This document shows positions 27,102-64,000 of a stretch of DNA of 64,000 nt, piece by piece (positions within the stretch are counted from its first letter, which is position 1; every line of letters starts with the position of its first letter). Source of the DNA: Ruditapes philippinarum. Lineage: Eukaryota. Both the position numbers and the translations under genes were made by a program. The DNA lies in assembly GCF_026571515.1 (NCBI RefSeq), contig NW_026860662.1:1-64000 (forward strand), written 5' to 3'. The notes under the pieces were generated by a model. It was not told where the DNA came from, made no database searches, and worked only from the letters and a program-made list of their open reading frames with translations.

Positions 27102-30100
27102 ATGATGCTATCACGTGATGATGGGGACAAATCAGGAAATGGACTGCACGTGCTATTTATTCTTGCTACCTTTATACATTCAGGTTGGTACAAATTTCAA
27201 CTTACAATCTTGATATATAACGTTAAGGGTGACTGATGTCTATACTCCTTTTCTTAAGCGTGACACGTATCACTTGAAACAGTGTGCACATAACGGAATA
27301 ATCTATACGCATAACGTAATGTAGCGTGCACACAATGAAATGATTTATACCCATAACGTAATGGAATGCGCATACAAAGAAACGATTTATACACATAACG
27401 TAAAGTAGCGTGCACAAATGAAATGATTTATACCCATAACGTAATGGAGTGCGCATACAAAGAAACGATTTATACGCATAACAAAATGAAGTACCCATAC
27501 AATGAAATGATTTATACCCATAACGTAATGGAGTGCGCATACAAAGAAACGATTTATACGCATAACAAAATGAAGTGCACACAATGAAATGATTTATACC
27601 CATAACGTAATGGAGTGCGCATACAAAGAAACGATTTATACGCATAACGTAATGTAGCTTGCACACAATGAAATGATTTATGCACATAACGTAATGGAGT
27701 GCACATACAATGAAATGATTTATGCACATAGCATAATGGAGTGTTCGTACAATAAAATGATTGATACATATAACGTAATGGAGTGTGCATGGAATGAATG
27801 ATTGATATGCACGTTGTGAAGGTTGCATGAAATAAAATGTCTTATACATTAGTTAGGCATATTTAAATGAAGTGTTCATGTAACAAATGATTGATTCGCA
27901 TTTCAAAATAAAGTACACGTAACCAAAAATCATAATAAAGTGTGAGTCAAACGAAATGATCAAAATACACATAACGAAATGGAATGTACATAACGTATTA
28001 AAGTGTGCACTGTACGAAATGACTGATAGACAACATCTTATTAAGAATGCACGTAACGTAATAATGCTAGGTATACAAACTTATCAATATGCATGACGTG
28101 ATGAAGTGTACATGTCACAAAACGATAATTCGCAAACCCATTATGTTGGTTTTGTCATGACGCGGCTCAATTATGTTTATATAACGTAGAGAAGTGCACA
28201 TATAACGTAATAAAGTGTGTATAACAAAATGATAAACGCAATAAAGTGTGCATACAACGGAAAGGTCAATATGTATAACGCAATAAAATATGTACAAAAT
28301 GTAATAAAGTGTGCATTTTACGAAATGGTCAATACGCATAACGTTTTGAACAGTGGAAATAACGGAACGATTTATATCAGCAACGTTACATATCTGCAGA
28401 TTTTAACTCGAAACATCATTTTCATTACACGAACACACTAACAACTATCCTAAGTACTCGGGCTTAGTGTCCATCCTCACTTTTTGTATGATATATTGCT
28501 ATAAAAATGTAACACCTATTTCATGATGATACGGCCAACTTATACATAATGTAATGAAATTTCCTAATTGTTACTTAGCATGACATAATGGTATATTGAA
28601 AAGGTAAGTTATAATGAGGCAGATATTATATTACTTTAAATTCTCTGATTTCATTTTTTGTCGCATGTTGTCGCACGTATCTAACAGATGACTGCAATCA
28701 GTAAACGATCAGACTAGATAATAACTACTGATTATAAATATGTTAAATGATGTAGAATGATTGATACGAATCAAAATAAGCAATGGTAAGGTTTTTGGAC
28801 TACATTAACAAAAAATTATTATGATTGTTTTTCTAAACTAATTTCAGTATTGTGTACATAAGTTTAGAGGACACGAATGGTCCCCGTGATTTAGCAGCTA
28901 CCAGCATAAAATCAGCGTTAATTCACTTCAATTTAAACTACCCAGCCGGTCCTTTATTAGCCAACATGTATGTATACCTCTATATGGTTAGTTACATCGT
29001 ATTAAATCTTTAGTTATGGCTTTAAAATCCTAGAAGCTAGAATCTGCTTGATCTGAATCTTAATTACATAACTATCAAATACGATGCGAAATTTCATAAA
29101 AGTCAACGTTGAAATCATATAATTAGACATTTTTTTATTTTAATCAAACTAATTGAGAATCTAATTGCCATACTTATATTAAAAGTTCGTTAACCCTTTC
29201 AAGTTACATTTATTACTTGTATTAAATGTGTTAACCTCTACTTTTCGTCATATATTTTATATTAAAACTATCATTAGCTCTGGGTATAAGGACTTCACAT
29301 TAAAAACTCAGTGTTCTTTAAGATTGTTTACTTCAGCCTTTATCACAAAATACGTGTAGATGAAAGACATTACATAATGTGATATATGCAGTTCATATTG
29401 AGGTATGTAGTATATATTAAGATATGTGGAACATATTGAAATATGCGGTACATATTTAGATATGTAGTACATAATGAGGTATGTGGTTCATTTTGATATA
29501 TGTGCACATATTGAGATGTGTGGTACATATTGAGGTATGTGGTACATATTGAGGTATGCAGTTCATATTGAGGTTTGTGTAGATATTGAGATAATTATGT
29601 GGTACATATTTAGATATGTGGTACACATTGAGGTATGTGGTATATACTGAGGTGTGTGTAGATATTAAGAAATGTGGTACATATTTAGATATGTGGTACT
29701 TATTGAGGTATGTGATACATAGTTAGGTACATTAACATTTAATAAGTAACTTGTCATCACACTCTATATAAGGACTGAAAACTGATGTATAAATACTCGA
29801 ATATATTGCACTATCAAATTATTTCTATTTCTATTATAGTAACCAGCAGTGTGAATGGAGGATTGAAGCTTCTAATATAACAGATGCTATAAGGATGGAA
29901 ATAACTGATGCAGAAATAGAATACCATGCTAGCTGTGTGTATGACCACGGTGAAGTTTTCGACGGTAACCTTTTTTTCAGCATTTATCTAATAAGCTTGC
30001 ATTAATACATTTGAAACACATTAATACATTTTCGATGATATATGAATGGTGGGCGTGGTACATTTTCGATGATATATGAATGGTGGGCGTGGTACATTTT

Positions 30101-31508
30101 TGATTATGTATGTATGGTGGACGTGGTACATTTTCGATGATATATGAATGGTGGGCGTGGTACACTTTCGATGATATATGTATGGTGGGCGTGGTATATG
30201 TTTCGATGATATATGTATGATGGCGTGTTACATGTTTAAATGATATATGCATGTTGGGCGTGGTACATGTTTAAATGATATATGTATGTTGGGCGTGCAC
30301 GGTACATGTTTCGATGATATAATGTATAATAGGCGCGGTACATGTTTCGATGATATTTTTATGACAAGCGCGGTGCACGTTTCAATGATATATGCATGAT
30401 GGGCGTGGTACATGGTTCGATAATATATGCATGATGGACGTGGTACAAGTTGCAATGATATATGCATGCCGGACATACATGTTTCAATGATATATGTACG
30501 ATATGCGTGGTGCATGTTTCAATGATATATATATGTATGCCGTACATGATGGTACATGTTTCAATGATATATGTCAATGGGCGTGGTAAGACGCAGTTTT
30601 TATGTGCTAGTCTGCATGTATAGAATAATGAGCTCGTTACAGGGTGATCCTAATGCCAAATCCGGTACCATCTTATTGCGTTCATGATATAAAGGAAGCG
30701 ATAACTTGTTCTCTTTACCAAACACTGTACATGTTTTCTGGTCCGTAATAATGCAGAGTGTTATGTTATCAGTTAGGGCCATAGTTTTGATATGTTTGCC
30801 GGACGCGATACATGTTTCCAGTTACGATAATGATTTGTGGGGGATCTTTGCCGACGTGAAACATGGTTTGTTCATTGTAAGCGCTATTATAGAAACAAAA
30901 TGTTTACTTACCCCAAATTAGTTTAAACAGATTATTTTAGTTCGATTGTGTAGCAATACGTGAAAATTTTCTGACGGGGGTTTGAACCCACGCGGTCGGC
31001 AGTGCTTCGAATACTAGCCCAAACCGCCAATCACTTAGCGACGACGTCACTCACAACCCGTAATTGTTTATTCCAATCTTTTATATGGAAAGTACATTTT
31101 GTAATCATATCAGCATTATTTTTGTACATATACATGTAAGTCGAAAGCGTTGCTGGTAAAATTCAATGTTCACTTTATAATAGGATTTTTGTTTTAGTAC
31201 TAAAAAACAATGGTAATTAAAATGTAGCTCGTATTAAATTCTTTGACAACTCTTGTTCTGTAAACATCATGATCGTTTATTTCATATTAACCTGATATCA
31301 CGTAACAAAATACAAGTCGCGACAGATTGATTTTTGAAGTAATTACTGCTTTCAAGTAAACCGCGTGTGTTATATTACACGTGAAATATCCTTGTCGCGT
31401 AGAAACATGGCTAGTTCAAAACTTTAGTAATTAATACCAGTCAGGTTTTTAAAATAGAAATAAAGCTCGTCAAAATGGCGGAAATGAAAGATGCAGTTAC
31501 GCTTTCAG

Positions 31509-31541
<33 letters not shown>

Positions 31542-34336
31542 GTGTTGTAATTCATAAAAAGTCCGTGCATGTATGATTTGATTATAGATTTATTAATATC
31601 GTTCCAACTGGTTTTTTATCGAAAAATATAACTTTAAATATAATTGATAAAAATATAATAATAATTAAGCTAGAAGAGTCGTTAGTTCCCTAAATATGGT
31701 ACAAATGGTTGAATTAACGGGACTTTTGTTATTTGTAGGTTACAATGTGTCGGCAGACTCTCTAGGCAAATTTTGTGGCAGAGATAACCCGTCGTTTGTC
31801 AGCACGGGCAACTACATGGCTGTCTCATTCAAGTCGGATTATAGTCTACCAGCAAAAGGATTTAAGGCACGCTACAAGTCAGGTCCAAGATGTAAGATTT
31901 ATCATTTTAATATTAACTTTTGTTAGGTTTATGCACAATTCAATGGTAACAACGCCCCGCCATTAGGAAAGCGAAGGAAAATAGCTAAGTTGCACACGCT
32001 TGCAGGGTCAATTGTTTTGTTTTATGTCCAGGTAGCAGAAAGTGTTCTCAGTGTGAAAGCAGAGGTTTTATCATCTCCCCTTTAACAGGGGTTTGATATC
32101 AAAGTACAGCCAATTTCCCGTGTATTTGATAGCCGCCGTTACAATTGACTCGTGTATTATACAAATGAGCGGAGTCAAGACAAAACCAACATAATGGGTT
32201 TGCGACCAGCATGGATCCAGACCAGCCTGCGTATCCGCGCAGTCTGATCAGGATCCATGCTGTTCGCTTACCAATTCTATTACAAGTATAGAAACTGATA
32301 GCGAACAGCATGGATCCTGATCAGACTGCGCGGATGCGCAGGCTGGTCTCGATCCATGCTGGTCGCAAACCCATTATGTTGGTTTTGTCGTGACGCGGCT
32401 CAAATGTGAAGTAAAATTTAACTGTTGGCTAGGTTTTTACTCGCAGTCATGATTTTACCACGATGACATGATAAATGTGACGAGTGTTTTGGTCTGAATT
32501 ACATGACTTTAATTGGTGTTGTTAAAAAGTGTTCGAAATCAAGATTGAAGCTAATGACAAATTCGAGTCGGCTTATGAGATATTTGATCCACGTGGTACA
32601 AGTGGCTTTCTTGTAGTTTATGCTTACACAAGATCGAAGTACTGGAGTTTGTGTAACTTTGATCTCCAGCAAGTAAGGTGGAGTTGATCCTCGGTGTTGC
32701 ATTAAGTGTGTTACACCAGGCTAGCCAAAATTCCATATGCCCCTTAAACAGCAATGTAATGACATATATATTTGCACATAAATAAGAGATCCAAATAAGA
32801 GTGCATATTCGTGGACGCGATTTAGAATTCAAATCTTTTTGTATTTTCATTTAAGATTATATTGGTATTTTTATACAATGTGCTGTTTTGATTAATTAGA
32901 TTTTGTTAATCATACATTATGTGTATAACATCTACACAATATAGTTTATAGCATTCTCAACAATAATAATGTACTTTAAACTTCCACCGTTTCAATGATT
33001 TCAAGCAAGGAAATAATTAAAAAAATAATTTGCTTATCTTATGACTTCAACGGATAAAGCATTTTAGAGTTCAAAACCTAATCCAACCGTCAGTTATTGT
33101 ATAAAGTAGAATTGCAAGAGAAAACATTGAAAATGATAACATTGTCAAATTCGAATAATATACACAAATACTGTTCCAAACTAACCTAAATTGCTCACAA
33201 TAAAACCAAAAGAGCAGATTTGAATTATTTTCTCCGCTTATGTTAGTTTAAGCTTTTTTAAGTGTTAAACTATTGATATTTATATAACATTGTTTTGTAT
33301 ATGAGTTTTATGGAAACATTTTACAATAATAAATGACTGGACTATAACCATTTGACAAGTTTATTTATCATTTGGAAAAGAAGAAAGAAATTTTATTGTA
33401 AGGCATAATATAAAGACGGCATAACATACTGATAGTATTATTGTAATTTCAGCAAGTCTACTTGACAAGGAAGATGATGAACAACAAGTCAATATGCTGG
33501 CCATTGTTGGTGCTTCTATCGGCTCTGTTGTTTTTATCATTGTTGTAATGACAATGGTATATACCTATATACAGGCCAAGAAAGCGAAAGAGATGCGGAG
33601 GAACCCCCATTTACACCGTGGTATGGCACGTGTCGAGCCATTTAGTTTTGGAGGTGGGTGGAGTTACCTTGACGGACCGGCTCCTCCAGCTTACGGGGAG
33701 ATTTATTCATCCCCAATGTCACCCCCACCACAGTATAGTGAAATAGATCCAAATGTGAACCCCTCTGAACGTCTACCAGGTCGCCGGGAATATATGGCTG
33801 ATAATCAGGCAGCTGAAACAGAACAAACTCAAGGAAATCAACGGGAGAGAACAGATACGATTGCAAACACACATTTTATGATGACAAGTAGCTTACGTAA
33901 TATACAAGCAATCACTCATTCAGCCGGCAGACGGCCAATATCTGTAGCTCAAAGTACAACTGATTCCTTACAAACTTTAAACCCGGCTTTACTCAATACT
34001 GCCGGAAATAGTTCGGGTACCAATGACAATAATGCTGGTATCAATTTGCCAGGCCAAACTGATAGTCTTCCTTCAGCAGTTGCACCGATTTCAACTACTT
34101 CCTCTGATAGAGTTGGGGTCACATCTAACATTTGTCAAAATAACACACATACTCAATCTCAAAGGGAAACAACTGATGGCTTGTCTCAGTCCGCTCAAGA
34201 TAGCACAGTTACCTCCCGTAATCTATCGGCGGATGGATTTGTCTCCCCTGGACCTAACGTGCAAGACATCGATGATAATATCTCAGTTGTATCAGAAATG
34301 TCACTTCCACCTTTACCTGTACAGGATACTAACTAG
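27102..34336 (+). CDS. CUB-domain type-I membrane protein, paralog 1 (exon 2 frameshifted as assembled)
   Basis: Exons: 27102-27183 (..GLHVLFILATFIHS, signal-like), 28848-28967 (degenerate, ..NYPAG..), 29840-29964 (NQQCEWRIEA..CVYDHGEVFD), 31739-31891 (GYN..GKFCG..FKSDYS..GFKARY..GPR), 33453-34336 (SLLDKEDDE, TM, KKAK, PPAY, PPQY, S/T/Q/N-rich tail). Intron phases are 1/2/1/1, as in the paralogs. Confidence 0.8.
27270..28380. repeat. 42-bp minisatellite (intron 1 of CUB paralog 1)
   Basis: Unit ~cataacgtaatggagtgcgcatacaa(t/a)gaaa(t/c)gatttatac(c/g), period 42, decaying to the right. Confidence 0.9.
29400..29730. repeat. 19-bp minisatellite
   Basis: Unit ggtacatattgaggtatgt. Confidence 0.9.
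30026..30590. repeat. 34-bp minisatellite
   Basis: Unit acattttcgatgatatatgaatggtgggcgtggt. Confidence 0.9.
31508..31540. repeat. (GTT)n microsatellite
   Basis: About 11 units. Confidence 0.95.
32167..32401. mobile_element. Palindromic MITE, Sola2-like (GAG...CTC, 4-bp TSD aaat)
   Basis: Whole-length inverted repeat flanked by aaat. A second copy lies at 42992-43226 and a half copy at 28130-28168. Confidence 0.8.
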
Positions 34337-42004: not shown

Positions 42005-45000
42005 ATGATGACGTCAACAATACTACTATACCTGCTCGTGCTCTCCATCACTGTTACCACAGGTACATCCTCCTTATATAACTCAACACCTATTTGTTCT
42101 AAGTAAATTATATTTATATACATGTATTATAATAAAATGATTGTCTGAAGTCATACACGTCGAGCGAGTCATTTATTTATCACCACTGTAGATTGTAGCC
42201 CGTCATGGGACTTAGGTTTTCCAGGTTTGGAAGCTAGTCCGCATCGGTAGCTTGTTCTACACCGCTATACCTCCTGGAACCTCCTGCCTGAAACAATGCA
42301 AGCCGGGACAGCTAGGTATCCCCGTCGTTTAAGTTGGTATATGACCTTTATTATGCAAATGTGACTCTAAAATATCAGCATGTGTCACTATATGTTTTCT
42401 GGAAAATATTTAAGATTCACATTGTTTGATTTTTATTTTCGTTTGCACTTCAGTGTATAGCCAGTGTGGTGGAACAGCTCTTGTCTTGACTGCAAACAGT
42501 ACATACCAGAACTTTACATCTCCTAACTATCCTACATCTTATAGCAAGTAAGTTTTCATCGTATTATTATATATATCACTCACATAATATATACTCTCAT
42601 ACTGTTTTTAATCAATCTTTTATTATTTATATCTTAGATCAATAGGGACAGCATCGAAATGGTGATACAGGGTCAATGGTTCGATCCTAAGGCGAGGCGT
42701 AATTTCTTTGTGACTATTGACCTCATTCATTGAGTCTAATGGTTATGTGTCTCATTGCTAATTCGGTAATTATGAGGGTTAAGTCATCATTCACTTGCGA
42801 AGAAGCTCGTAACTACAACTTAGTTATCAAGGAATATTGGTTAGGTAGAAGGACAGTCGAGATATGACAAAAATCAAACAGCATTTATAACTGATATATG
42901 TTCATATACGATTTCGGCAACGTACAAAAGAAAACCATATTTCATTGGAAGATGGATTATCCGTCATCCGAGATTGCACATAGATATAATTGAGTCGTGT
43001 CATGACAAAACCAACATAATGCGTTTGCGACCAGCATGGATCCAGCCCAGCCTGCGCATCCGCGCAGTCTTATCAGGATCCATGCTGTTCGCTATCAGTT
43101 TCTCTACTTGTTATACAGTTGGTAAGCGGACAGCATTGATCCTGATCAGACTGCGCGGATGCGCAGGCTGGTATAGATCCATGCTGGTCGCAAACGCATT
43201 ATGTTGGTTTTGTCATAACACGGTTTATATGCATGTAACAACAACAACAATTGTCTATTATTTAAGTCAACAGTCGTGTGAATGGCGTATAGAAGCAGAC
43301 GACAGTAGTCACGCTATCAGACTGGAGGTTTTTGAAGCAGATATAGAGTATCATGCCAAATGTGTCAACGACTACGGCGAGGTATTCGATGGTAGGTCAT
43401 ATCTGCTGCTGATATAGTAATTGTCCTGTCTTGTTTTTTTTTTTATCTAAATTGACTGCCGTAAAAGCTGCAAAATCATTCAAGTCCTGTGAATAATAAA
43501 GTATATAAACAAAAAAATTAACAAAGGGGTGGGTTGACTTTGAAAGAAGCGTAGGATTAGTAAGCCATTAGCTTAGTTGAAACATATTTACTGACGGTCG
43601 ATAGTGAAACAAGATTTTGAAAATTATATAATCACTTCTGAGCCAGCTTCACGGAGCGAGCCAGTACTGTTGTCATATGAAAACCAAAACTTGGGTAGGT
43701 CTCTATAACACTGCTGTATGGAATCAAACGCACTTTTGGGTCCCACAGCAAAGTGTGTAACGTACTTAGGGGTCCAACACCAAAGTACGTCAATTTTAAC
43801 CACAAAAACGAGTTACACAAGTTTTCAACATCGGACAAACGGCCGCACTGTGGTCATAAAATCTAAATAAATAGAAATGAATGAGATTTATGTCAATGGT
43901 AAACTAAAAAAAAGAATAACAATATATTAAGTCGGATAACAATAGCAGATGATAGTAGATGGACCCAAAGTTCGTTTGAACCTGGGATGCGTTGTGACAG
44001 ATTTCGAACCAGTAACCCATTGGTTGAGAGGCAGACATCTTAACTACTAGGGCACCGCTCCCCTTAAAATAGAGAAAAACAGAATCCCTAAAGAAAGCCC
44101 AACACGGCAAAATTGTTAAATTAAGTCATTCTTATATCAACATATTTAATATAGTTATACCTTTTTATAATGTATGCTTTTATAGGTGATAACGTAAACG
44201 CTACGTCACTAGGAACGTTCTGTGGTACGTCTACCCCGAATTACGTCACTACTGATAGCAACATGACTGTTACCTTTATCTCGGATTATAGCGTCACGAG
44301 AACTGGATTTGCAGCCAGATATATATCCGGACCAAGATGTAAGACTTGTAAATCTCTGTTACATCCTATTTCCTTTTGTCGGTAATGTTTGATAAGATAA
44401 CGGTCGTTAGACAAATAATCTCAATGCAAGCGGTGAATAACGTTTCTGCACAATTGACAGTTAACTCTGTAGCTAAGTTCAAATGCCACTAATTTTGATA
44501 ATCGCCCTTTCTGGTGAATTTAGTAGAATACTATTCTTTTGTTTAAATGTTGAGTTTTGCTGAAACTGGTGGTAAAGGAAAGTAGCTTGCACCACGGGAT
44601 TTAATTGTAATTAAAGTCCGTGCTTACACTTACTGCATAAATTGATAGCCAGACTCAATCGAACCGAGCCTTTGATGTTGAAAATCTCAATTTGTTTGTA
44701 CACCATTATTTGATATGTGTCCGGAATTTTATCGTAGATTTTACAAGATGAATTGCGCACGTGTACAATGATACGATATAAAAATGAAATATCAACAAAA
44801 CACAAAATCATATCGTGTTCCCTTTCTTTTCCGTTTTTATACGATAATGTATTTGATTTATTAACTTTAGTTATAGACACATCCAATCGTCAGGTAGCTT
44901 TCATCATATGTGCTAGTACTTATGATGGACATAAGTATAAAACATTTTTCTCATTCAGAATAATTATACCCCCGCACAACAAAGTTGTAAGGGGGTATAA

Positions 45001-46747
45001 TGGAATCAGCTTGTCCGTCCATCCGTCCGTCCGTCCGTCCGGCTGTCCGTCGGTTTTTTCTTGTCTGCCCAATAACGTAAGATTCCTTTGACCCTTAGTC
45101 TTCATATGTGGCATGGAGGTTAGTCATAATTAGTAGATGACCCCTATAGATTTTGAGGTCACTAGGTCAAAGGTCAAGGTCACAGGGGCCTTGACTTCAA
45201 AAAGCTTGTCCGCCAAATAACTTAAGATACCTTTGACCTACAGTCGTCATATTTGGCATGGAGGTTAGTCATGATTAGTAGATTACCCCTATTGATTTTT
45301 TTAGGTCACCAGGTCAAAGGTGAAGGTCACAGGGGCCTTGACTTCAAAAAGTTTGTCCGCCCAATAACTTAACATTCCATTGACCTACAGTCTTTATATT
45401 TGGAATGCAGGTTAGTCATGATTAGTAGATGACCCCTATTGATTTTGAGGTCACCAGGTCAAAGGTCAAGGTCACAGGGACTTTGATTTCAAAAAGTTTT
45501 TCTGCCCAATAACTTTAGATTCCTTTGACCCACAGTCTTCATATTTCGCATGGATGTTAATCATGATTAGTAAATCACCCTTTTGATTTTGAGGTCACTC
45601 GATCAAAGGTCAAGGTCAAAGGGACTTTGACTTCAAAAAGTTTGTCCACCCATTAACTTAAAATTCCTTTGACCCAAAGTCTTCATAATTGGCATGGATG
45701 TTGATTATGACTATAAGGTGACCCCTATTGATTTTGAGGTCACTGGGTCAAAGGTCAAGGTCACAGGGACCTTGACAAAAAAGCTTTTCTTCTCAATTGC
45801 TAAAGAATGTCCTGTCCGCAATGTATTGATTTTGACATTTTCTCATTTGAAGCACGTAGAATACATAACTTAGCAATGCACTGGCTTAGTAACCTCAGAT
45901 TTGGCAGGGAGGTTGTCCTTGAGCTCTAAATGGCCACTGTTGATTCTGACAAAGTGGTATGCGGGGGTATTCACGCCTTGATAGTGGCAGTGCTAGTTAT
46001 ATCATAAATATTTTATATCTTTTCTTTCTTTGCTTTAATTTAGCTAGTCTATTAGATGACGAAGAGGAAGCAAAGGGGATAATGTTGTTTATCATAATTG
46101 GCGCAGCATCGGGTGTAGTTGTTATTTTAATTGTCACTCTGATAGTTTGTCACAAATGGAAGAAATCTAAGAGAGCAAGAGAAAAACAAGCGTGTCAAAT
46201 TGAAGTACAACCGTTCCATGTAGCCAGCAAATGGAGTACTCGCAATCGTGGTATCGATGCCCCACCTATGTTTGGAAATGGAGGAGTTTCAACGCTTTCC
46301 CCGCCTCCACGATACAGTGACGTTGGGCTACATCCGACACCAGGAAATGCAGCAGGACAAACTGATGGGGTACCAAATACACGTTTCGTCGTTCCAGAAA
46401 ACTTTCGAATGGCAACAACACAAATAGGTGGCACCACTAATGGAGTTCTTCCAAACGGAAATGCTGGTGTTGTTACGACGAATATTACAAGTAACACACA
46501 ATCAGACCCCTTGCCGAATGACAATAACAGTCCTGAAAATCCAACCGTCCCACCTCTGAACCTGGCGGGCCAGTCGAGTTCCTCACCTGTACCGGCCCCA
46601 GCACCGGCACCTGTATTAACAAATCAACAGCCGCCTCTCATGCCACGGCGTAATGTTCCTGGTCAAACTCTCAGTGAAGCTCTGTCTAGTAGTGATGACG
46701 ATTCAGATACAGATTCTGATGACTCATTTGACTATATAGAAGCATGA
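42005..46747 (+). CDS. CUB-domain type-I membrane protein, paralog 2 (intact, 377 aa)
   Basis: Exons: 42005-42062 (MMTSTILLYLLVLSITVTT signal), 42454-42547 (VYSQCGG..FTSPNYPTSYSN), 43267-43391 (QQSCEWRIEA..CVNDYGEVFD), 44186-44338 (GDN..GTFCG..FISDYSVTRTGFAARY..GPR), 46044-46747 (SLLDDEEE, TM, HKWKKSKR, PPRY, Pro-rich, acidic end). The total is 1134 nt with an open frame. Confidence 0.92.
42992..43226. mobile_element. Sola2-like palindromic MITE, copy 2
   Basis: Homologous to 32167-32401. Confidence 0.8.
44964..45998 (+). mobile_element. HINE/pearl-type element with (GTCC)n and ~5 x 145-bp tandem array
   Basis: ttatacccccgc..gggggtataa hairpin, then a microsatellite, a tandem array, the subTIR gcgggggtat and a 3' ctagtt end. 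Confidence 0.8.
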
Positions 46748-51459: not shown

Positions 51460-52365
51460 GACGGACGAGAAGAGTGTACCAACACTATAAAGTGTTTAGA
51501 ATTGAGTACCGCTCAAGCCGGTGCTAGGGGGCGTGAGGGATGTTGCACTTATTCATTATCCCTCATGTACAGACTTAATCAAACCGAGTCTGCAATTCTT
51601 ATGTTATTTTGTTGTGATTAATGATTTCGAGGGATCACTTTGTTTCCAGAATTTTTTATCAATCCTATCTTGGAATGTTGAAGGATTAAAGCAATATTTA
51701 ACGGACAATGAATTCTTAAACTTTGTCACAAATTTTGACTTCATTTTTGTTAGTGAAACGTGGCAATGCATAAATGATGAATATTGTATTGATGATTATG
51801 TTTCGATATGTGTGCCTAGGCCTGAAAGTGTAGCATCAAACAGACATAGTTATAGAGGTCACGGTGGTGTTTGTCTTTATATTAGAAACATCATACAAAA
51901 TAGCATTACTGTTCTTGAAAAACACACAGCTGGTTTTATAGTTGTCAAAGCATGTAAAGATTTCTTTTGTCTTGAAAATGATATTTGTATATGTTTTGCA
52001 TATATTCCACCAAATGATTCCCCTTATTGTAGACTGCATTAATTTGGTTATTTTGAACATTTAGAACATTATATTAGAAAATACAACGATCTTTATAAAA
52101 TGTGTGTCATCGGTGATTGAAATGCCAGAACTGCAGATAGAAATGATTTATAAGTGTCATCGAGTGTGTTTGATAAATATGTTCACACACTTGACCAAAA
52201 TACGGAAGAGTGTCCATTACTTTTAAATATTAGGAAAAGTGAAGATATGATTTGTAATGCGTCTGGATTGAAATTGCTTGATATCTGTCGTACTTCTGAA
52301 TTAAAAATTGTTAATGGACGAATTGGTGATGATGAGGGAATTGGTCGTTTGGCTTACTTGTCCAG

Positions 52366-54854
52366 GGGTAAGTATCTCGAAGCTATCGTTAGCATAACGA
52401 CTATCGTATACCTCTCGTTAAGGTTTTCACCGCTATCTCGACGCTCTCGTAATTAACGAATAATCGTTTACATGTCCAATTATTAACGGATGCCTAGAGG
52501 TAGTCGTAAGGCTCTCGTTACTATCATTTTGACACAAAAGTAAGAAAGGTGCGATTTTAAAGTACATAAAAAATGAGAATTATATCATTTTATTGATAAA
52601 AAATGATGAACCGACATAAATATAGTATTGTATTTCTTTTTCTCATGAATTTTCACAGGCCCGTTATAGATTTTATTGTGTAAATTCACTTAAAGAACTC
52701 TTTAATACAGTTCCATAAAAAATATCATTGATTATTTGAAAGAGATAAACTTGTTTCAATGGATCTAATTGGCTCATTTTTTATTGTCATTTACAAAGTT
52801 TTACATAACATTTTAAGCCTATTTAGCATTCGGCACGATATGGCCAGTTATGAGTTGACGACCCGTAAAAATCCAAACAAACAAATTTTTTCTCACATAT
52901 CAAACATATGTAAACTGTAAAGCCGTAAAGGTTCTTTACAGTTTAATTTAAGACTTATATTTGAATGCGGATGAAAGAAAAACATATCATAACTTAAACA
53001 GCGAAAGGAATAATCTCCGTAATGTGTAATTTTGCACAAGAAAATATAAATAAATATATGCATACATCATGCTGAAAATTCAACAAAATTCAAACTTGTT
53101 ACAGAATTATATTTTGAAAAGTAAACTGTGACGTATTAATTACATCATGAAGAAAAGTGCATCACATCAGCTGCAAAAATCGGTACCAAAAAAAGGGATG
53201 TAATATATAGAAATGTTGTTTGTTTATCATTTCATAGTAACAAATATTTCACTCGCGAACACAAGTTGTTATAATTTAACTCGTTATATTTTAATTTATA
53301 ATACAACAAACATCCTTTGTTTAAAACAAAATGAAAATTTATCCATATTGATTAACAGCAGCCATGTATATATTTAGTAAAACAGAGTTTTGACAGGTTA
53401 TATGGCCGTATATAAACGATAACCCGATCTGCCAAGTGAGAGTTATATTGCAAACAAAATTATATCGGCCATGTATCCTGTTAAAAATCTTTATAACGAA
53501 TTTACAATACTGCAGAAAAAGAGAGATTTCTTGATAAATTGACAGCAGCTGTGTATATAAACTATATAAACGCCAATTAAAATTGACTTACCAAACTTGC
53601 ATTAACAAACGTGCAGTATTATAAAAGATTTTACTATACTGCACGTTTGTTACATCACTTTTCATTGGAAAATCATGACATTTTTATAGTTTTATATACA
53701 CTGTTTCTGGCAATTTTCTAAGAAATCTCACTTTTTTTTCTCAAAAAAGGGAAGTTCGCGGTTTTATGAATTCGTTATAAATATTCCTGACATGTAAAAT
53801 GGTTGTAGGCAATATAACCATCGCCTAGCGGGTCGGGTTATATTTCCAAACAGTCGTTTATATAGGGCAATATTACCTGTCAAAAATCTTTATAACTAAT
53901 AATATAAACGTCATGATTATTCAATGAAAATCGACTTTACATATTTAATATATATTTATGCTTATGAAGTCATTGTTTTGCTCATGGCGTCTATGTTATG
54001 CGCATGACGTCTTTGCAGCTGTGGGATTTTAGAAAGAGTTGCTGTACATATGTTTGTCTAAAGGGTAAAATTTTATTATGTTTCGTGAAAATATAGTCCA
54101 CATTTCAGTCAAACAGAGCGACAATGAAAGCAATATTTTCAAATTTGAATATTGACAGTATACTTACACCCAAAAATAGCCTGAAGATGCCCCCAGATTT
54201 TTTGACTGGTATTGATAAGAAAAAATCCGCCAGAATATTGGCTTTAACTATGTAAAGTGTTTAAAATATCTGACTACACTGGCAGCCGCTGCTGCTTTAG
54301 ATCTTCAGTCTCTGCGGTTTTATATACAGTCGTTCTTCCTCTGTTTCTAGTATTGCAGTTTCTATGTTAAGTTCCCTCCCCGCCCCTCAATTTAAATCAC
54401 GCCTGTTTTATTGGAACTTTCAACAGGGGTAGTTCCATTGACTGTTCTCTTTTTAAAGGAACCGTTTTCGTAGGTTTACCACTATCACAATTGATATTAT
54501 CAAGGCAATCGGGATTTTCATCGCGAAACAAGTCTATATTGTTAGACGACAGACCGGCGGCTCCTGCACGTGTCGTGTGATTGTGTTCCGGTTTAGCATG
54601 ATCGTAACCTTATATTCACCTTCGTCTACGCAAAATAATGATTCGGTGAATATTAACAAGAGCTGTACACAATTTTCGCGGTACATGTATTCAAATAACA
54701 CAACGCAATCGTTAATAACTAACGAGTAAGCAACGAACGATTGCTTAACTACTGCTTTCGAGATACCCGCGCTAGTCTCTCGTTAACCAACCCTCCGTCA
54801 ATCGTTAGCACGTTCGTAAACGCAAATATAACGATAGCTTCGAGATACTAACCC
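52366..54854. mobile_element. PIF/Harbinger-type non-autonomous DNA transposon inside LINE ORF2
   Basis: TIRs GGGTAAGTATCTCGAAGCTATCGTT / AACGATAGCTTCGAGATACTAACCC with TSD CAG. Excision restores YLSSNGKSAIDY. Confidence 0.85.
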
Positions 54855-56070
54855 CAGTAACGGTAAAAGTGCCATTGATTACGCTATTGCATCATTATAC
54901 TTATTTCATATCATATCTGACTTTATTGTACATGATTATTACACATTTTCACAACATGTTCCTGTACAGATAAATTTTAAAGTTAATTGTATAAAAAAAG
55001 ATAAACATGTTAAATACAATAATGTACCCAAACTTATTTTGGATAATGAAAAAGTTAATGACTATAATAATGTTCTATTAGATGCTTTTAGTAAACTAAA
55101 TAACATTGTTAACCAAATAATTTCCTCAAATATCACAATTAGTGAAGATGTTGATAATTTTGTTAATGTACTGTATAATGCTGTAATTTTGGTAATGTAA
55201 AGTATAATGCTTGCGTTTCATGTATTTGGTGTAAACAAACCTGTGTACTGTAATACAATAACAATTAATAAAAAGCATGATCATCCGTGGCTCACGAGCG
55301 ATAGCAAAACTGCCCGACATGAGTTAAATAGAGCAAATCGTTGTTTAAGGACAAATGAAAATTATCTTGTGGTTATTGATAAACGGAGGTATTATAGAAA
55401 GGTAAAACGCAAAGCAAAAATTTTGTATGAGAGCAAACAAAAAAGTGAATAGCATAATGCTTCAAAAAGTAGCCCTAAGAAATTTTGGGATCTTGTACGT
55501 AAATATAAGAAGCTAATGATTTTTATGAACATTTTAAGTCACTGTTTTCAGATACTAACATTTTTAGCGACCAAGATGTGGAAAATACTGTTAATGATGA
55601 AACTTTTGTACATGCTATAGAGCAGTTAGATTGTGAATTTTCAGATGATGAATTTTATAAAAACGTCAGAAAAGTGCTGGTGAGGATATGTTAATTTCCG
55701 AAATATTTTTAGACTCTAAACATATTATTGCACCTTTGTTATGTAAATTGTTTAATTATATGTATAGTAATTGTGCGTACCCAGACTCGTGGACCAAAGG
55801 CATATTGGTCCCTGTACCTAAAAAAGGAGATCCAAATATCGCTGATAATTATAGAGGTATTATGTTAACCAGTATATTTTCTAAAATATTTTCTCAACTT
55901 TTAGATACAAGGGCCAGAAGTTTTATTGAAAATAAACAATTATTAACCGATTGTCAATATGGATTTCGTCAGAATCGTAGCACTATAAATTGTATATTTG
56001 TTTTGCAAAGTTTGATAAATAGAATTTTACATCAAGAAAAAAGAAACTGTATTGTGCATTTGTAGATTTT

Positions 56071-57175
56071 AACTAGAAATGTGTCCATAGGACACGGGTG
56101 CCCCCACCGCGCCACTGTTCTGTCAATTTTTTTACTAAGTCAAGGGAAATAACTCTACAAATATTTGATAAATCCACAAACGAAACCCCAAGTGCAAATC
56201 TAAAATATGCTGAGCAACCTGCCCATAAGGTTTAATGACTATGTCAAATCCAAATTGAAAATTGCAAAAAATTTCTAAGTGAAGGGCAATAACTCTAAAA
56301 ATACTAAACGAATCCAGACAAAAATACCTGGTGCACAACTGCAAATGCTGATCAATATTCCTGTAAAGTTACATGACTCTAGGTCAAATACTTTTTGAGT
56401 TACGTGCGACACAAGTTGAAAATTGCAAAATTTTACTAAGTCAAGGGCAATCACTCTGAAAATACTAAAAATATCCACACGAAAATACCCAGGTGCACAA
56501 CTACACATGCTGATCAACATTCCTGTAAAGTTTCATAACTCTAGGTCAAATACTTTTTGAGTTACATGCGACACAAGTTGAAAATTGCAAAATTTACTTA
56601 GTCATGGGCAATAACTCTGAGAATACTAATAATATCCAGACGAAAATACCCAGTTGCACAACTACACACGCTGATTAACATTCCTGTAAAGTTTCATGAC
56701 TCTAGGTAAAATTCTTTTTGAGTTACGTGCGACACAAGTTGAAAATTGCAAAATTTTACTATGTCAAGAGCAATAACTCTGAAAATACAAAAAAAATATC
56801 CACACGAAAATACCCAGGTGCACAACTACACATGCTGATCAACATTCCTGTAAAGTTTCATGACTCTAGGTCAAAAACTTTTTGAGTTACATGCGACACA
56901 AGTTGAAAATTGCAAAATTTTACAAAGTCAAGGGCAATAACTCTGAAAATACTGAAAATATCCACACGAAAATATCCAGGTGCACAACTACACATGCTGA
57001 TCAACATTCTGTAAAGTTTCATGACTCTAGATCAAATACTTTTCGAGTTACGTGCGACACAAAAGTGAACGGACGGACGGAAGGACGGACGGAAGGACGG
57101 ACGGACGGACGTACGGACAGACGGACGGACGGACAAGGGTAAATCTAAATGCCCGCCACTAACGTGGGGGCACAA
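56071..57175 (-). mobile_element. HINE/pearl-type element with ~161-bp satellite array and (GGAC)n, inside the LINE RT
   Basis: aactag.. end, five to six ~161-bp units with an aagggcaataactct box, a microsatellite and a terminal hairpin. It splits GATTTT|AAAAAGGCATTCGAC (DF|KKAFD). Confidence 0.85.
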
Positions 57176-59272
57176 AAAGGCATTCGACCTTGTGTATAGA
57201 AATGGAATATGGTTTAAGTTGTTGAATTATCAGATGTTGTCTTAATTTATTAATATATTAAAAGCTATGTATCGATTAGCTACAAGCATAATTAAACGAG
57301 AAAAAGCATGATAAAATGCATGCTTGTCGGGATTGAGAAGGTTTATAAAGCTCCGCAAGATAAACTTTCTCACTAACCGGATAAAACTTCCTCATTCCGA
57401 CATCATCCATGTATTCTCTATATAATAATGAAAACGGGCCCTTGTATTTACACCAACAGTATTGAAGACGGGCCCTTGTATTTACACCAACACGATGCTA
57501 GTGTGTAATGTCTTAAGTTTGACACCGTCAAACCCTTTGCTCCTAAATATCTTTTTGCAAAATATTAAGCTATGATTTTCGGAGTTAATTGATTGAGTAA
57601 TTTAAAGTCTCATCAATGTACCCACTATAACAGTGACTTGCATTTATATACATTTCTAATCCAAATAAATTACTAACATCTCAATATTATGATGTACCTT
57701 CTTCGACATTGAAATTACGACAGAAGTCCCAAATATCTGAAAACAGTATCAAATAAGAAAGAATAATGTATGACAAAAAACTGCTCTGTTTACGGCAATA
57801 AAATATTCAGTCTGTCTGTCTTCTTTCAAACGAGTCTAGTGTTGGATTAGAAATGGAAATCCGTATAGTGGCCTCGCAAGTTTGTTTTGTTTGTTTCATT
57901 TTACGCCTTTTCCAAACAGTATTTCAGTCATATAGGCGAGTAGTTTCCTAACCATCATTCCAGGAGAGTTACACCAGTACTAGACTACCTTCCTCCGTGC
58001 TAAACTACCAAAACATTTCCCGGGGAGCGAAGCACGACAGAGAGGAACCTGGCAAGTAATCGGACGAATGGTTTTTCAAATTCTGAAAGCAACCGTACAT
58101 TGAAAAAACTCCAAAAGTGTTAATTTCAGTGTCAATTTTTCTTAACCAATGTGCTCTAACCGAAATTCCCTAATTTTCTAATACTTAGAAAGTTATTCTT
58201 CAAAGAGTCATGAGGGTATTAATCGGTGCTAGAAGTCGACGTAATATGACATTTTTGAGAAACCGAAGTGAGAAATTAAATTATTAGAAAAATATAGTTT
58301 TTTTCACAAGGACCATACCGAGAAATCTTTTCATGTAAGGCCACCTCATAAAGATAAACATTTCTTCAAAGAGCGACTTTTACTGAACTATTTTACCTGT
58401 ATTTAAAACTAAATCCGCGTAAATTGCCGTGTATAACTTGCTTGCAAACGGAAGTTATAGTGGACACTGGTGTGTATACTGTTCTATAACTATCCTCATC
58501 CAGAAATAATTAACACTATACATGTACTTTTATAATCTTACCAAATATAATTATGCTATTAATTGTATTTATTTTATGAATAATTTTTATACATTTCTTG
58601 CACAGAAATTAATTTATTCAAGTGTCCCAATTATCAAAACATAACTACTTATGATCCCCGTAGGATTAGGATGAACAAATTCTTATTAAATATCTAAGCT
58701 CAAGGCCATTTAACTTCTGATAAGCAGATTTGTTTTTATAGAAAATTGTTACTTAAGTCATGTTAACCTGACCTACAGAGCGGACCATTTTATTTCACTG
58801 TTCCTTCTTTTAAACAAAGACGTCGACCAGGTCAGGTTACGCATCTAATTATCTAATCTGTAGACATAGTGGCTCCTTGCTAGAAGATTTCAGGAGTTTA
58901 CGATAAGTAGAGCCCAGTTGTCAGGCTTTGAACAGTCATATAAGTTGTGCAGTTTTCAACCATTTGATTTATATTTCATTGTTTTCTTTAGGGATTCTTA
59001 TTTCTCTCTATTTTATCGCCACATCAGCGTTGTTTGTGCCGTGTGGAGGCTGTAAAAAGTCGCCCCGTACATTCAATCAGGGATGTTATATTTCCGATCC
59101 TTAAAGATCGTTCAGCACAAGATTATTGATGTGCTTGTGGTATTTTTAGTTTCAACTTTTAGGCATTTTCTAGTTGGGTGGTTCCAATATTCCTACTTGA
59201 ATAATGTTGAATCACCCTTAGGATATGTTGCCTGCTTTTTAAATTTGTCTTTTGGCGTCTTATCTGTGATAC

Positions 59273-59766
59273 GCAGGCTTCATAACCTCTGATCCCCTTT
59301 CAAAATTCCATTTTATTTAGTTCCGCCCATTGTTTTCTCGTTTAGGGCACACGCCTTTTTTTACTTGGGGACAATACGCCGCTTTTCATTGAATGGCACG
59401 GAAGAAATAAGAATCCCAAAAGAAAGCCCAACACGGCACAATTGAAAATGTTGCAGGCTCGGTTTGATTGAGCCTGTTCATGGACGGTACTGTCAAGTGC
59501 AAACTACCGACCACGCCCCCTAGCACCGGCTTAAGCAGAATTCAACATTTAAACATGAAATAGTAAAATTTTGAATTTAGAAACATCCGCAGATGTGTTC
59601 ATACGGCAGTTATCATGGAACCTTCAATGTGACACTTCCGTGCCATTCAATGAAAAGCGGCGTATTGTCCCCAAGTAAAAAAAGGCGTGTGCCCTAAACG
59701 AGAAAACAATGGGCGGAACTAAATAAAATGGAATTTTGAAAGGGGATCAGAGGTTATGAAGCCTGC
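59273..59766. repeat. Perfect 132-bp inverted repeat (59273-59404 / 59635-59766) with 230-bp spacer
   Basis: Arms match base for base by eye; weaker inverted similarity extends outward. Confidence 0.9.
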
Positions 59767-61746
59767 ATATAAAAAGCAGGCATCTTAGCCTAAGGTTGAT
59801 TCAACAGTATTCAAGTGAGGAATGTAAAATTACCATCGGATAAAGATCATTAGCATGGATCATGATATGCATTATAAAAAAAACAGATGTTTTACCTTAA
59901 CCCCTTAACAAATGAGGTATCCATGCGATCAATATCTGTGGATTTGTAAGTGTACCAAAATAGCCATACTTTAGATGTATTAATTTTGCAAATTATCATA
60001 CGTTTTATTGTGGCCTATTAAAATTACTTTGGCAAGGCAAATGTTATATCTTGGCCAATAAGAAATTCGTTGGAAGTGTCAAGTTATAATTAAGTGTCAA
60101 GTTATAATCATTAAATTATACTAGAATCTGACAAGATCAAACTTTTAAAACTCAGGACTTGAAACCTAGTTTTAAAAAAGGCACCAAGGCAATTACATTA
60201 TTAACAGCAATACAAAACAAAAATACAAAACAAACAAAAAACACAAAAAAAACCCCAAAAAACAACAAAAAAAAGAGAGAGAAAAAAAGAAGAAAGTAAA
60301 AAACGAAAAGGGTAAGAAAATAATAAAAAAAACGGACGCAAACAATTAAATAAATACGCCGCAGTTCCTAAATACCTAATTATGTCAAATTATGATACAA
60401 AATAATCAAATCCGCTTTTCAGCGATTAAAAGGGTAAAATCTTGAATAGGCAAACGGAGTTGCAAGAAGAAATAGGTAATTTTGGTGAAGATAAATATAT
60501 ATGTAAGGAAGATGTATGGAAAGAGATATGTACAGTGTTAAGGGGTAAGTGATATTTTGTACAATAAAATGACTTCAGAATTTAAATCTATGTGACTGAA
60601 TTATTTACATGTTTAAAAGTTATGCAGGTTTCGTGAACGAAATCATTGCGTTGAAACTCTTAGTCTTGCTCAGCATAAATTCAACGACATTATAACATAA
60701 AATAAAACAAAAATAAACAATTGGTTACAAAGATATATAAAGTTTTATTGGTGTTTATAATTAAATGTTATTAAAAGCAGGTGACTGTTTTATCATTTAA
60801 ATCATTTAAGGTAGGGGCGTGTGTTAGATGACAGAGTGATTATGTCTCAGTCAAATATTCATTTCTACACATCATGCACATACTTAATATTGATAAAAGG
60901 CTGAGTTTAGTGAACTTAGCTTGCCTTATAATCTCCTGATGTCTCTTCTTTTTTTAAATACAATTTCATGTTAAATGTTGTTTAAGCGGTCGTAGGGGGC
61001 GTGTACTGCTAACAGCTTGCACATTTCTGTACCGTCCATAAACAGTCTCGATCAAACCGAACCGGTAACATTTTCAAATTTTCAGTCGTTATTTCCCTTT
61101 TCTCAATATTGTTGATCTTCTTTTTTCTTTTTTTTTTCTCTCTTAATTTCAGATTCATAAGATGTTTGGTTAATGTATGAATTATGAACATTTTAACCTT
61201 ACGATGGTGAGATTATTCTTCACGCAAGATCAACTCATATATGTGATTCTCTATCATCTGATAGTGTGTACACATTTAGGTTTGTAATTTATTTCATCTC
61301 TATCATCTGACATTGTATATATACATTTATTTAGGTTTATTCTTTATTTCACGTCAGTCATAAGTTTTAACAATATTTTATTTATAATCCATACATTTAC
61401 ATAATAAAGTACATTAAATAAATGTTACGGATTGAGTAGGAAGCTTGTAAAGCATTTTTTTTATTTCATCTAAATCATTAAGACAATGATATATTGTAAT
61501 TTATTTTATGTTTGTGCCATTGTGTTAGTGATCATTTACTTCTTAGATCTCATAATAAATTGAAATGTATTGTTTCATACAATATAGCAAATACTGTCTT
61601 AATTTTAACTACTTAGTTCACAAATATAGATAAATACCTTGATATGCTTTGTAGTTTTCAATATTAATGCATCTGTTTATTATTGTCACTATATTACTAA
61701 CATGTTATATTCACTGTATAATCTTAGTTTTAACATTGTATTTTAG

Positions 61747-64000
61747 TATGGAGCCAGTGCACACCTAATAATTATGCGAACGTGTCGACAACAACAACTT
61801 ATCGGGAGTTAACCAGTCCTGGATATCCATCAAATTATCCAGCGTAAGTATCTGAAATATTGATTTGTTTGATAAAATAATATAATACACGTACATAAAA
61901 TCGTAAATAGTCTTCATTTTTAAATTTCTTATCAATAAAGAATAACGATTGTTTAGACAATTGAAAATGCTTAGATTATTAAAATTGTAAAGAGTTGAAT
62001 TCTACAATATGTTTCAGGAATCTGGACTGTTTGTGGTATATAGAAACAGATAATAGTTCTTACGTTATAAGACTAGAATTCCTGGAATTTTCTACAGAGG
62101 ATACGGGTTATTGTTTAGAAGATAAAGTTGTAATATATGACGGTATGTGCTATATTACACTTGTAATTGTTATAATGAAAATTGTGTCGTATTTATGCGC
62201 TTCATTACACCACAGTGTCTGTAACCGTGTAAAGATGTGTTTCTATATGATTACATTGTCATGATACAAATATAGCAGCTGGGATTGTTAACCTTTGTAA
62301 GGGGAGAAAGGGTAGGCAGGCTTGACCGTAGCTTGCAATTACCCCTCCAGTTTATACCTTGTGACACTTTAAGGCTTCCGTTTTTATCTATTTTGACTTT
62401 CTCCTAAACGTTAGCCACTTTTATCTTCATAATACCGATTTAACTGGTACGAAATAAATAAAAGTATGTCAAACAAGTAATTTGAATAAACATCTTATTA
62501 TAAAAAGCATCATCTTGTTTATGTATATAATCTAATCCGTATGCTTTATTGATACAAACTGGATAATTATGATTTGTTTCTTATTTTGAAGGTGAGCCGC
62601 ATTATTCGAATTATTTAGAGACATATTGTGGTAGGAAGATACCAGATCCAATTGTCAGTATAGGAGTATTGCTCACTATAAAACTACAAACTGACTCCTC
62701 GAAACATTCTACAGGCTTCAAGGCGAGATATATAGCAGGGCCCGAATGTAAGTTGTTTTTTATTTCAGTTAACCTATATACATGCATTTACGTGTGCCTG
62801 TAAATGCACCTTTCTTTGGTTTGTAAAACATTAGTTTAATAGTTTTCTTACCTACATGTTTTCCTTCTTCACCTTTAAAGTTCAATGAATTAATGTAATG
62901 TTCAGGTTGACGCCAGTTGTCCAGCAAAATTACATGTGACCGCCTAACTATAGACGATTTCGCAAAATATTCATTATATAATTTTATGATTTCTTTTCTT
63001 CAGTCGTAGGGATTACAATAGGCAGTTTACGGTCTGTATATATTTGAAAGGTTGACACAGTGGTAAATTTATTTAATGCTTGGAGGCACTCGGCGCTGTG
63101 TACTTTAACTTATATGTCGAACCGCTAAAATTTAGTTGTGTTGAATATTATCAGTACATTTAACATGAAATGTTACTGTTTGAGCAATATAAATCCTTTC
63201 CTTGCTCGTAGAATTCCTTCCATTTTGGTTTAGTAAATCCCGGTGCAATATAATAAAAGTCAGCACGTGGAACGTCACAGACTCGTAGCGATCTTTTAGT
63301 CCGCAAAATGTTTGTTGGCCGTTATAATTTTTGATTGGCAGGGATTCATTTTATTTACCCTTTGTCGTATCACAGTAACGTGTTATGGCTAAGAGTGTTG
63401 TTTTGTGTACTATTAACAATCCCATTAGCGTGTTTGATGCTGCCTGAAAATATATGTCTTTTTTATTGCTTCATGTAAATTTTGTGACACCTTTTGTGTT
63501 CCTTCCTGATTTATTTTTCTTAAACGGTAAATATCCTATACCCATAGTTATATTTATTAATTTTTCCCCTTTCCCAACTTATCCGTGTGCCGGCCCGTTT
63601 GGCCTTTCCTTATTTTGTTCTATGCCCTGCTTGGAAACTTGCTGGCGGTCCTTTATCACCCGTTTTATTAGGGGATGCGTTCATTCGATGCCGCATTACC
63701 CTTGTTGATCTTTCTTATATCCTATAGATCTGTCACTATAATATATAATTTTGTACTTTTTCCGGAATGTGTACAGAATAGCAGACAACTCATAAAAGCA
63801 ATTTCGATAGACCAGATTACAAAATTACAAGCAAAATATGTATTGGTAGCATTAAGATAAAAGACAACTATATAAGTATAATTGATATCTTTCCTATCTT
63901 CAGGTTTTGCACACACAAAAACTGTAAAAAAAAGTTATGTTTTTGTATCGACAATAATATTTCACAAATTTTCAACATTAAAGTTTGTGTACATTTCAGC
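61747..64000 (+). CDS. CUB-domain protein, paralog 3 (partial: signal exon not located, last exon beyond window)
   Basis: Exons: 61747-61843 (VWSQC..LTSPGYPSNYPA), 62018-62142 (NLDCLWYIET..CLEDKVVIYD), 62592-62747 (GEP..ETYCG..LQTDSSKHSTGFKARYIAGPE). The window ends at a tttcag|c acceptor like the last exon of paralog 1. Confidence 0.88.

Follow-up and report, generated by a model that had tools for sequence, protein, structure and literature searches.

A 64,000-base stretch of the Ruditapes philippinarum genome (bases 1–64000 of a 406,911-base contig, C9149; hereafter the window, with coordinates above 64000 continuing the same contig numbering) carries a tandem cluster of genes for small membrane proteins that combine an extracellular CUB domain with PPxY (PY) motifs in the cytosolic tail. 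These CUB-PY proteins are a real, uncharacterised bivalve family. Three CUB paralogs lie in the window, all on the + strand, with GT-AG exons in phases 1/2/1/1; their CUB exons measure 94/125/153 nucleotides (nt) in paralog 2, 97/125/156 nt in paralog 3 and -/125/153 nt in paralog 1. The exon models agree with the initial annotation in the co-orientation, the common phases and the similar sizes in paralogs 2 and 3. It counted three genes, whereas the whole cluster, once the contig beyond base 64000 is read, consists of four genes and two truncated copies. The CUB cores of the paralogs are 35–60% identical to one another. Transcript evidence comes from spliced contigs of runs X1, X4, X15 and others (hereafter RNA contigs; the source runs are not on record as RNA), the raw RNA reads of runs X23 and X24 being unusable at a depth of about 1, too low and swamped by repeats.

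The first coding exon of paralog 1 (27052..27183, +) comprises 5′ untranslated region (UTR) from 27052, an ATG at 27102, a signal peptide and a phase-1 donor, and the contigs of X1, X4 and X15 end at 27183; the X4 contig extends by 153 letters, pointing to a further 5′ UTR exon upstream of 27052 whose site was not located. CUB exon 3 (29840..29964, +; 125 nt) supplies the Glu and first Asp of the acidic triad described below, and CUB exon 4 (31739..31891, +; 153 nt), supported by the exon model and RNA contigs, supplies the SDYS sequence. The GT-AG joint from 29964 to 31739 is present in 4/4 runs. One X1 contig joins 31891 to 33453, connecting the last CUB exon with the gene's own transmembrane (TM) exon. 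This last coding exon (33453..34336, +) encodes an acidic stalk, the TM segment, a lysine-bearing stop-transfer sequence, the PY sites PPAY at 33683–33694 and PPQY at 33725–33736 (+), a 248-residue lysine-free tail and the stop; RNA contigs run past the stop to about 35300. The cluster of CUB paralogs is real and, since the CUB exons of paralog 1 splice to their own TM/tail exon, is not one multi-CUB gene at paralog 1; transcripts linking the CUB units into a single gene, an alternative named in the initial annotation, are ruled out here by the spliced contigs.

The initial annotation also took paralog 1 for a full receptor. The X1 contig supplies the transcript of its own TM and tail, but the model is incomplete, as exon 2 (94 nt, N-terminal CUB strands) is missing from the assembly. 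The interval 27184..29839 (+) contains tandem repeats and no exon 2, while the X4 and X15 contigs carry, between 27183 and 29840, 94 letters that find no placement on 26950–31960 and match exon 2 of paralogs 2 and 4 in length; exon 1 spliced directly to exon 3 would be out of frame. Searches covering the contig's first 360 kb did not recover exon 2 (tblastn, exon hidden Markov models over 160–360 kb), an AG-GT scan of 1–29800 returned noise-level scores only, and a further copy of exon 3 of paralog 1 was not found elsewhere in the assembly (1/1 candidates checked). A 100-nt candidate at 28868–28967 was rejected because the transcripts require 94 nt and no contig from the four runs covers it. 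Either exon 2 was lost by the assembly among the tandem repeats, or a null allele is carried. The disappearance of an expressed exon may reflect a presence/absence polymorphism or a collapse at the tandem repeats near 27300–28350 and 29360–29730. A very high-copy, hairpin-like short repeat, which swamps read mapping, also occurs in introns of the cluster (28130–28176, 32180–32400 and 43000–43225).

The exon model of paralog 2 encodes 377 amino acids and is letter for letter RefSeq LOC132712950 (P0001; 100% identical). It consists of a signal-peptide exon (42005..42062, +; 58 nt coding, identical to RefSeq XP_060551372.1), CUB exons 2 (42454..42547, +; 94 nt), 3 (43267..43391, +; 125 nt) and 4 (44186..44338, +; 153 nt), all three from the exon model, and a last coding exon (46044..46747, +) for the stalk, the TM segment, a 171-residue lysine-free tail and an acidic C-terminus. 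The first base of this exon, 46044, is also where RNA contigs of X1 and X4 start. Pfam recognises one CUB (PF00431, residues 33–138, E 5.9e-26), and in the AlphaFold2 model a signal helix and a beta-sandwich are accompanied by a TM helix (149–194) and a tail with a predicted local distance difference test (pLDDT) score under 50, which confirms the architecture read from the DNA at the outset. The first PY site of paralog 2 is decayed to PPMF (46262–46273, +), where its relatives P0002 and P0003 have PPVY; the second, PPRY (46304–46315, +), is intact.

Paralog 3 crosses the end of the window. Its CUB exons 2 (61747..61843, +; 97 nt) and 4 (62592..62747, +; 156 nt) come from the exon model, and exon 3 (62018..62142, +; 125 nt) is also present in RefSeq XP_060551366.1. 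The TM/tail exon (64000 to contig base 64361, +; PPIY at 64275, PPRY at 64317, short tail) lies beyond the window, as the initial annotation had it, apart from its first base, which is the window's last. Exon scans upstream, including 46900–61700, yielded no ATG-bearing signal exon; the top of three candidates in a relaxed scan of 46900–61700 is a hydrophobic 60-nt candidate signal-peptide exon without its own ATG (58992..59051, +), located downstream of retrotransposon remnants. The RefSeq model XP_060551366.1 ('tolkin-like') lacks exon 2 and runs the CUB exons across paralog 4 into a duplicated TM exon, located at contig base 76450. Paralog 4 is complete (contig 69754–73420, +; 359 amino acids; exons of 91/94/125/156/614 nt), carries PPAY and PPGY and keeps lysines in its tail; for part of the cluster beyond the window we cite RefSeq model XP_060551354.1 as support. 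Farther along lie a truncated paralog-3-like copy (contig about 75690–76808) and a truncated paralog-4-like copy (contig 87469–88611) that has lost its second PY. Between them sits a young long terminal repeat (LTR) retrotransposon (78013–84527, −) with 638-base LTRs 99% identical and one 1,598-codon open frame, which we take to be of Gypsy type from its domain order.

A genome-wide search with the TM-PY block of paralog 1 gave six matches to TM/PY exons among nine candidates, and a search with its exon 3 gave three among six; all matches lie in the cluster, and both counts are lower bounds. Against 1.84 billion representatives, the TM-PY block profile produced 30 matches, the best 21 of which (E at most 6.1e-7) carry the block or its PY part. 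The strong named matches are bivalves throughout, namely Ruditapes, Mercenaria mercenaria (paralog-3 type), Mactra antiquata and the unionid Potamilus streckersoni. An abalone protein is a weak match (E 6e-5), and matches weaker than E 1e-6 are mostly due to chance, a fungal kelch protein and a BED-finger protein being among them. Four full-length relatives each possess one CUB, one TM segment and two PY motifs. P0020 (Mercenaria LOC123558858), of the paralog-3 type, is annotated as 126 amino acids without a CUB; either the model is cut short or the form lacks a CUB, like PMEPA1. In the TM-PY tree each clam paralog clusters with outside sequences (support 90–100), and the duplications are therefore older than Ruditapes philippinarum, while their order is not settled by the trees (starred inner branches 0/6 for CUB-to-PY and 6/23 for TM-PY). 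Judged from these sequences, the CUB-PY family is small, with duplications predating the species. The lineage-expanded family of the initial annotation thus keeps its duplications and loses its scale: it has at least six TM/PY exons in one cluster, and the kin of paralog 1 are conserved out to Unionida. A word-index search with full paralog 2, a weak method, returned eight matches, mostly multi-domain CUB proteins, and aligning the tail against proteins of 458–2000 amino acids gave 0/7,995, weak evidence against longer fused forms. Judged by titles and the start of abstracts, mostly outside subscription papers, no literature on a CUB-PY bivalve family was found.

The ectodomain contains only four cysteines and ends in an acidic stalk of about 12–20 residues. 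Its acidic triad (in paralog 2, E78, D86 and D126) falls on acidic positions when aligned to the CUBs of cubilin and neuropilin and is retained in 8/8 CUB cores compared, all paralogs included, which upholds the assignment made from the DNA alone. The triad matches the definition of calcium-binding CUB domains by one Glu and two Asp ligands, as given in the available part of PMC10214685, and calcium binding itself is predicted. The paralog 2 model superimposes on the TSG-6 CUB and neuropilin CUBs with a root-mean-square deviation of 1.5–2.1 over about 117 columns; no orthologue stands out among these best structural matches, all single CUB domains. Cubilin is the top sequence match among solved structures, where four CUB matches add up.

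The CUB core of paralog 1 is 73% identical to that of Mactra and 46% to that of Potamilus, and orthologous CUBs remain 73–75% identical. Alleles scored in RNA contigs, for paralog 1, differ in the CUB by one non-synonymous change in 219 sites and six synonymous ones in 57 sites (counted on the full table), and in the distal tail by at least eight non-synonymous and at least five synonymous changes (40 of 397 rows). The paralog 1 CUB is under purifying selection, and diversifying selection on the CUB, a prospect raised with the initial annotation, is not seen in this paralog. A conserved partner therefore fits, rather than pathogen-driven variation in a hypervariable immune receptor. In the paralog 4 duplicate pair, CUB exon 4 shows a proportion of non-synonymous differences (pN) of 0.009 against a synonymous proportion (pS) of 0.082.

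Two PPxY motifs are found in 24/27 family sequences at a spacing of 14 residues (21 cases) or 15 (3 cases), 33–52 residues from the membrane; the standard pair is lacking in paralog 2, P0034 and abalone P0032. PPxY tails had been ascribed to the whole cluster, and paralogs 1, 3 and 4 do carry two motifs, but paralog 2 keeps one intact PPxY. In 20,000 shuffled tails, two PPxY motifs arise in 0.07–0.19% for paralogs 1, 3 and 4, and a single motif arises in 3.2% for paralog 2. The PY block of clam paralog 1 is 91% identical to that of Mactra and 53% to that of Potamilus, compared with 27% for the distal tails. In alignments, a V-x-P motif precedes the PY pair, with more short conserved motifs in paralog-1 types. 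Paralog-1-type tails (window 33740–34330) share LPGR, N-x-N-T-x-F, LNP, SLPN and a C-terminal S-x-x-S-E-x-S-L-P across species. Many PY motifs run on as Y-x-x-hydrophobic, a form of endocytic sorting signal that here overlaps the PY site.

Lysine was examined in 25 distal tails, defined as the sequence beyond the first 20 cytosolic residues. The paralog-1-type tails (14/14, 184–272 residues) contain no lysine in 3,294 residues, compared with 212 arginines (sums added by hand from per-sequence rows). Paralog-2-type tails have one lysine each (3/3), the short paralog-3-type tails have none (3/3), and the abalone P0032 tail has two in 67 residues. The juxtamembrane stretch has a nearly invariant lysine (K189 in alignment A2). 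In seven open frames picked by hand from the contig, lysine makes up 73/1,463 residues (5.0%); at this background rate 0/238 lysines in the paralog 1 distal tail has a p of 5e-6, and 69 of these 238 codons are one change from lysine. Because the distal tails are only 15–31% identical pairwise in gapped global alignments, shared ancestry alone is a poor explanation of their lack of lysine; orthologous tails have diverged past useful alignment and yet are still lysine-free. According to the accessible part of PMC10169902, lysine deserts in which arginine is retained occur preferentially among ubiquitin-system proteins and shield them from ubiquitylation, and a 2026 review calls their purpose context-dependent (PMC13696103, in the portion available). 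Among the matches listed, no literature was found that joins 'lysine desert' with PPxY, NEDD4 and WW domain; the paired PPxY at fixed spacing and the lysine-free distal tails are new observations here.

On balance we are inclined, with restrained confidence, to regard these separate single-pass CUB and PPxY proteins as putative membrane adaptors of NEDD4-family ligases for a surface partner. The layout of signal peptide, one CUB, short acidic stalk, TM segment and tail is established by the paralog 1 transcript and the paralog 2 RefSeq model. The CUB, with its Glu/Asp/Asp set, would grip a conserved protein partner. The PY pair would engage two WW domains, releasing and switching on a NEDD4-family ligase, by analogy with Itch and WWP2, in which multiple PY-WW contacts release auto-inhibition. 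The ligase would tag the bound membrane partner with ubiquitin, leading to its uptake and lysosomal destruction. The lysine-poor tails of paralogs 1–3 may spare the adaptor, directing ubiquitin either to the partner or to those few lysines that lie near the membrane, and the Y-x-x-hydrophobic sequences overlapping the PY sites may aid endosomal sorting. Paralogs 2–4 would be duplicates of long standing, since adjusted to different partners or different rates of turnover, and paralog 4 with its lysine-rich tail would be destroyed along with its cargo. The genome has candidate ligases, as four contigs (C11258, C11685, C4135 and C6471) each match WW exons and, downstream on the same strand, HECT exons. 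The adaptor idea, already put forward in the initial annotation, thus gains from the conserved PY pair, the lysine-poor tails of paralogs 1–3 and the WW-HECT loci, while the grip of the CUB and the binding of a ligase are still things we infer.

Several points weigh against the adaptor reading. The acidic triad is common among CUB domains and therefore says little about the partner. PPxY is also bound by WW proteins that are not ligases, the first PY site of paralog 2 is without its tyrosine, and the paralog-4-type distal tails hold 9–18 lysines (4/4). The lysine background is a small set rather than a proteome-wide one, and the 14 lysine-free tails are related. In the part of PMC11315911 at hand, LRP10 suppresses IL7R through its TM segment and tail, without its CUB ectodomain; a CUB therefore need not be the grip on the client. 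A bolder form of the adaptor reading, which seems to us possible rather than probable, makes the proteins reusable, calcium-gated 'membrane degraders': the CUB would grip its client at seawater-like calcium, the PY pair alone would activate a NEDD4 ligase and the lysine desert would let the adaptor persist and recycle, paralog 4 being single-use. If that holds, the cluster is a natural experiment on the lysine desert in a membrane ligase adaptor.

Much of the same evidence could be accommodated by calcium-dependent receptors that take up or clear a soluble ligand, in which the PY-recruited ligase would mark only the receptor's own membrane-proximal lysines and no second membrane client would exist. 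Cubilin as the top match among solved structures, the nearly invariant K189, the Y-x-x-hydrophobic motifs overlapping PY sites and a CUB conserved (73% to Mactra) as expected of one fixed ligand all suit this explanation. We nevertheless hold it to be unlikely: one CUB on about 12–20 residues of stalk offers little reach or avidity, and a receptor meant for ubiquitylation has less reason to purge lysine across more than 200 residues. That loss of lysine with retention of arginine is likewise unexplained if the PY pair anchors non-ligase WW proteins of the Yorkie/YAP, KIBRA, MAGI or WWOX types in receptors for adhesion or polarity signalling. We judge this quite improbable, even though many genomic WW loci, among the matches listed, have no HECT exons on the same contig, and tandem WW domains of WWOX and YAP are described, in the published text available to us, as binding multiple PPxY motifs.

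The arrangement of the locus itself recalls a polymorphic immune-recognition cluster with ectodomains diversifying against pathogens, like the snail single-pass TM clusters GRC and PTC2. Tandem single-pass TM genes, recent partial duplications, mobile elements, the low identity among paralog CUBs (only 35–60%) and the possible presence/absence of paralog 1 exon 2 are features of that kind, and comparable clusters are reported from Biomphalaria (PMC4361660 and PMC7494358, in the parts available). Selection speaks for the opposite: the paralog 1 CUB alleles, the ones scored, have no excess of amino-acid polymorphism, pN is far below pS in the paralog 4 duplicate pair, and orthologous CUBs stay 73–75% identical, so that diversifying immune receptors strike us as very improbable. 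Hardly credible, finally, is the notion that a single multi-CUB gene comprises all the CUB units as its exons, or that the cluster is a haplotype assembly artefact. The assembly is indeed fragmented (15,874 contigs), and RefSeq does join paralog 3 CUB exons to the 76450 TM exon across paralog 4. However, the X1 contig ties the last CUB exon of paralog 1 to its own TM exon, stop included, every CUB unit has its own TM/stop exon, the paralogs are 35–60% identical to one another, and each paralog type has counterparts in other records.

Other elements surround the cluster. At about 115400–155400 (+) of contig C9149 lies another tandem array of CUB genes, divergent and about four in number. In at least two of them the stalk is long and mucin-like (Thr/Ser). 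Three TM exons were identified, and an 'LWSRSNT...PGEVVQTNIFD' motif is common to two tails, which lack PPxY and keep lysines. Within the window, a decayed retroelement with a DUF1759 domain (18500–22540, −) is presumably of the BEL/Pao type. Open-frame translations point to transposase-like and LINE-like (long interspersed nuclear element) remnants between paralogs 2 and 3 (48300–49250 and 50750–56070), two frames of which gave no Pfam match when scanned. A coiled-coil-like exon lies near the contig start (87–377, −), with no Pfam match for 87–374, and 1291–1521 and 9223–9447 are other possible exons of an unrelated gene.

By analogy, the clam proteins probably work like Commissureless, LRAD3, SUSD6 or LRP10 and yet belong to none of them; domain content sets them outside LRP10/12, NETO, LDLRAD3/4, PMEPA1 and NDFIP. 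LRP3 and LRP12 form one family with LRP10. Proteins of the LRP10/LRP12/LRP3, NETO and MIG-13 class have LDLa beside CUB, whereas Pfam finds no LDLa (PF00057) in paralog 2 or the four full-length relatives, and the paralog 1 CUB exon splices directly to the TM exon. LRP10 is similar in being a type I membrane protein whose CUBs face outward and whose proline-rich tail bears PPxY, and it lowers a partner receptor, IL7R; the available part of the source proposes a link to NEDD4 without testing it there (PMC11315911). It differs in having two CUBs, LDL-receptor ligand-binding repeats and DXXLL motifs, while the clam proteins possess one CUB, no LDLa and two PY motifs at a fixed spacing.

LRAD3/LDLRAD3 and PMEPA1/LDLRAD4 resemble the clam proteins in being single-pass with two PPxY motifs, but their ectodomain is LDLa or nearly absent where the clam proteins carry a CUB. 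PMEPA1/LDLRAD4 also have a Smad-binding motif between the PY motifs, which is not seen between those of the clam. LRAD3 activates Itch through its PPxY motifs (Noyes 2016, as cited in the part of PMC11315911 available). Two PY motifs jointly serving a membrane client are likewise known from Drosophila Commissureless, where together they bring Nedd4 to Robo1, leading to lysosomal degradation (PMC12101832, available in part). No sequence similarity to Commissureless was found, none having been sought beyond the TM-PY profile search. Commissureless is not known to have a CUB domain. SUSD6/TMEM127 and NDFIP1/2 are small membrane adaptors too. The SUSD6 ectodomain is a sushi domain, and the NDFIPs have three TM segments and N-terminal cytosolic PY motifs, unlike the signal peptide, one TM segment and C-terminal PY of the clam proteins. 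With a single PY apiece, SUSD6 and TMEM127 have to act as a pair, whereas both PY motifs of the clam proteins lie on one chain. For NDFIP2, SUSD6 and TMEM127 with WWP2 or Itch, release of the ligase requires several PY-WW contacts, as far as the accessible text of PMC12720080 describes.

The PF11669 (WBP-1) profile is passed narrowly by one of the 22 proteins scanned, the Mercenaria paralog-3-type TM-tail (28.8 versus a cut-off of 28.1 bits), clam paralog 3 scoring 16.4; convergence on a TM segment with PY is therefore as likely as kinship with WBP1/VOPP1/Shisa-like proteins. The latter have a small cysteine-rich ectodomain, and the clam proteins have a CUB instead. Abalone XP_046547630.1 (P0032) is a molluscan protein with CUB, TM segment and two PY motifs, but it apparently has two CUBs by eye (Pfam counts one), a PY spacing of 21 and the weak profile score noted above. 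In the ESM Atlas, a cluster of 51 mostly mollusc CUB proteins (431 amino acids) is the first match of both paralog 2 (0.91) and the Mactra protein (0.90). No known principle would be overturned by the adaptor reading. If true, it would add a new ectodomain-tail combination, in a farmed bivalve, to the few membrane adaptors by which NEDD4-type ligases are directed to selected surface proteins, and it would offer a direct test of the lysine-desert idea in sister genes with and without tail lysines that share the same PY pair.

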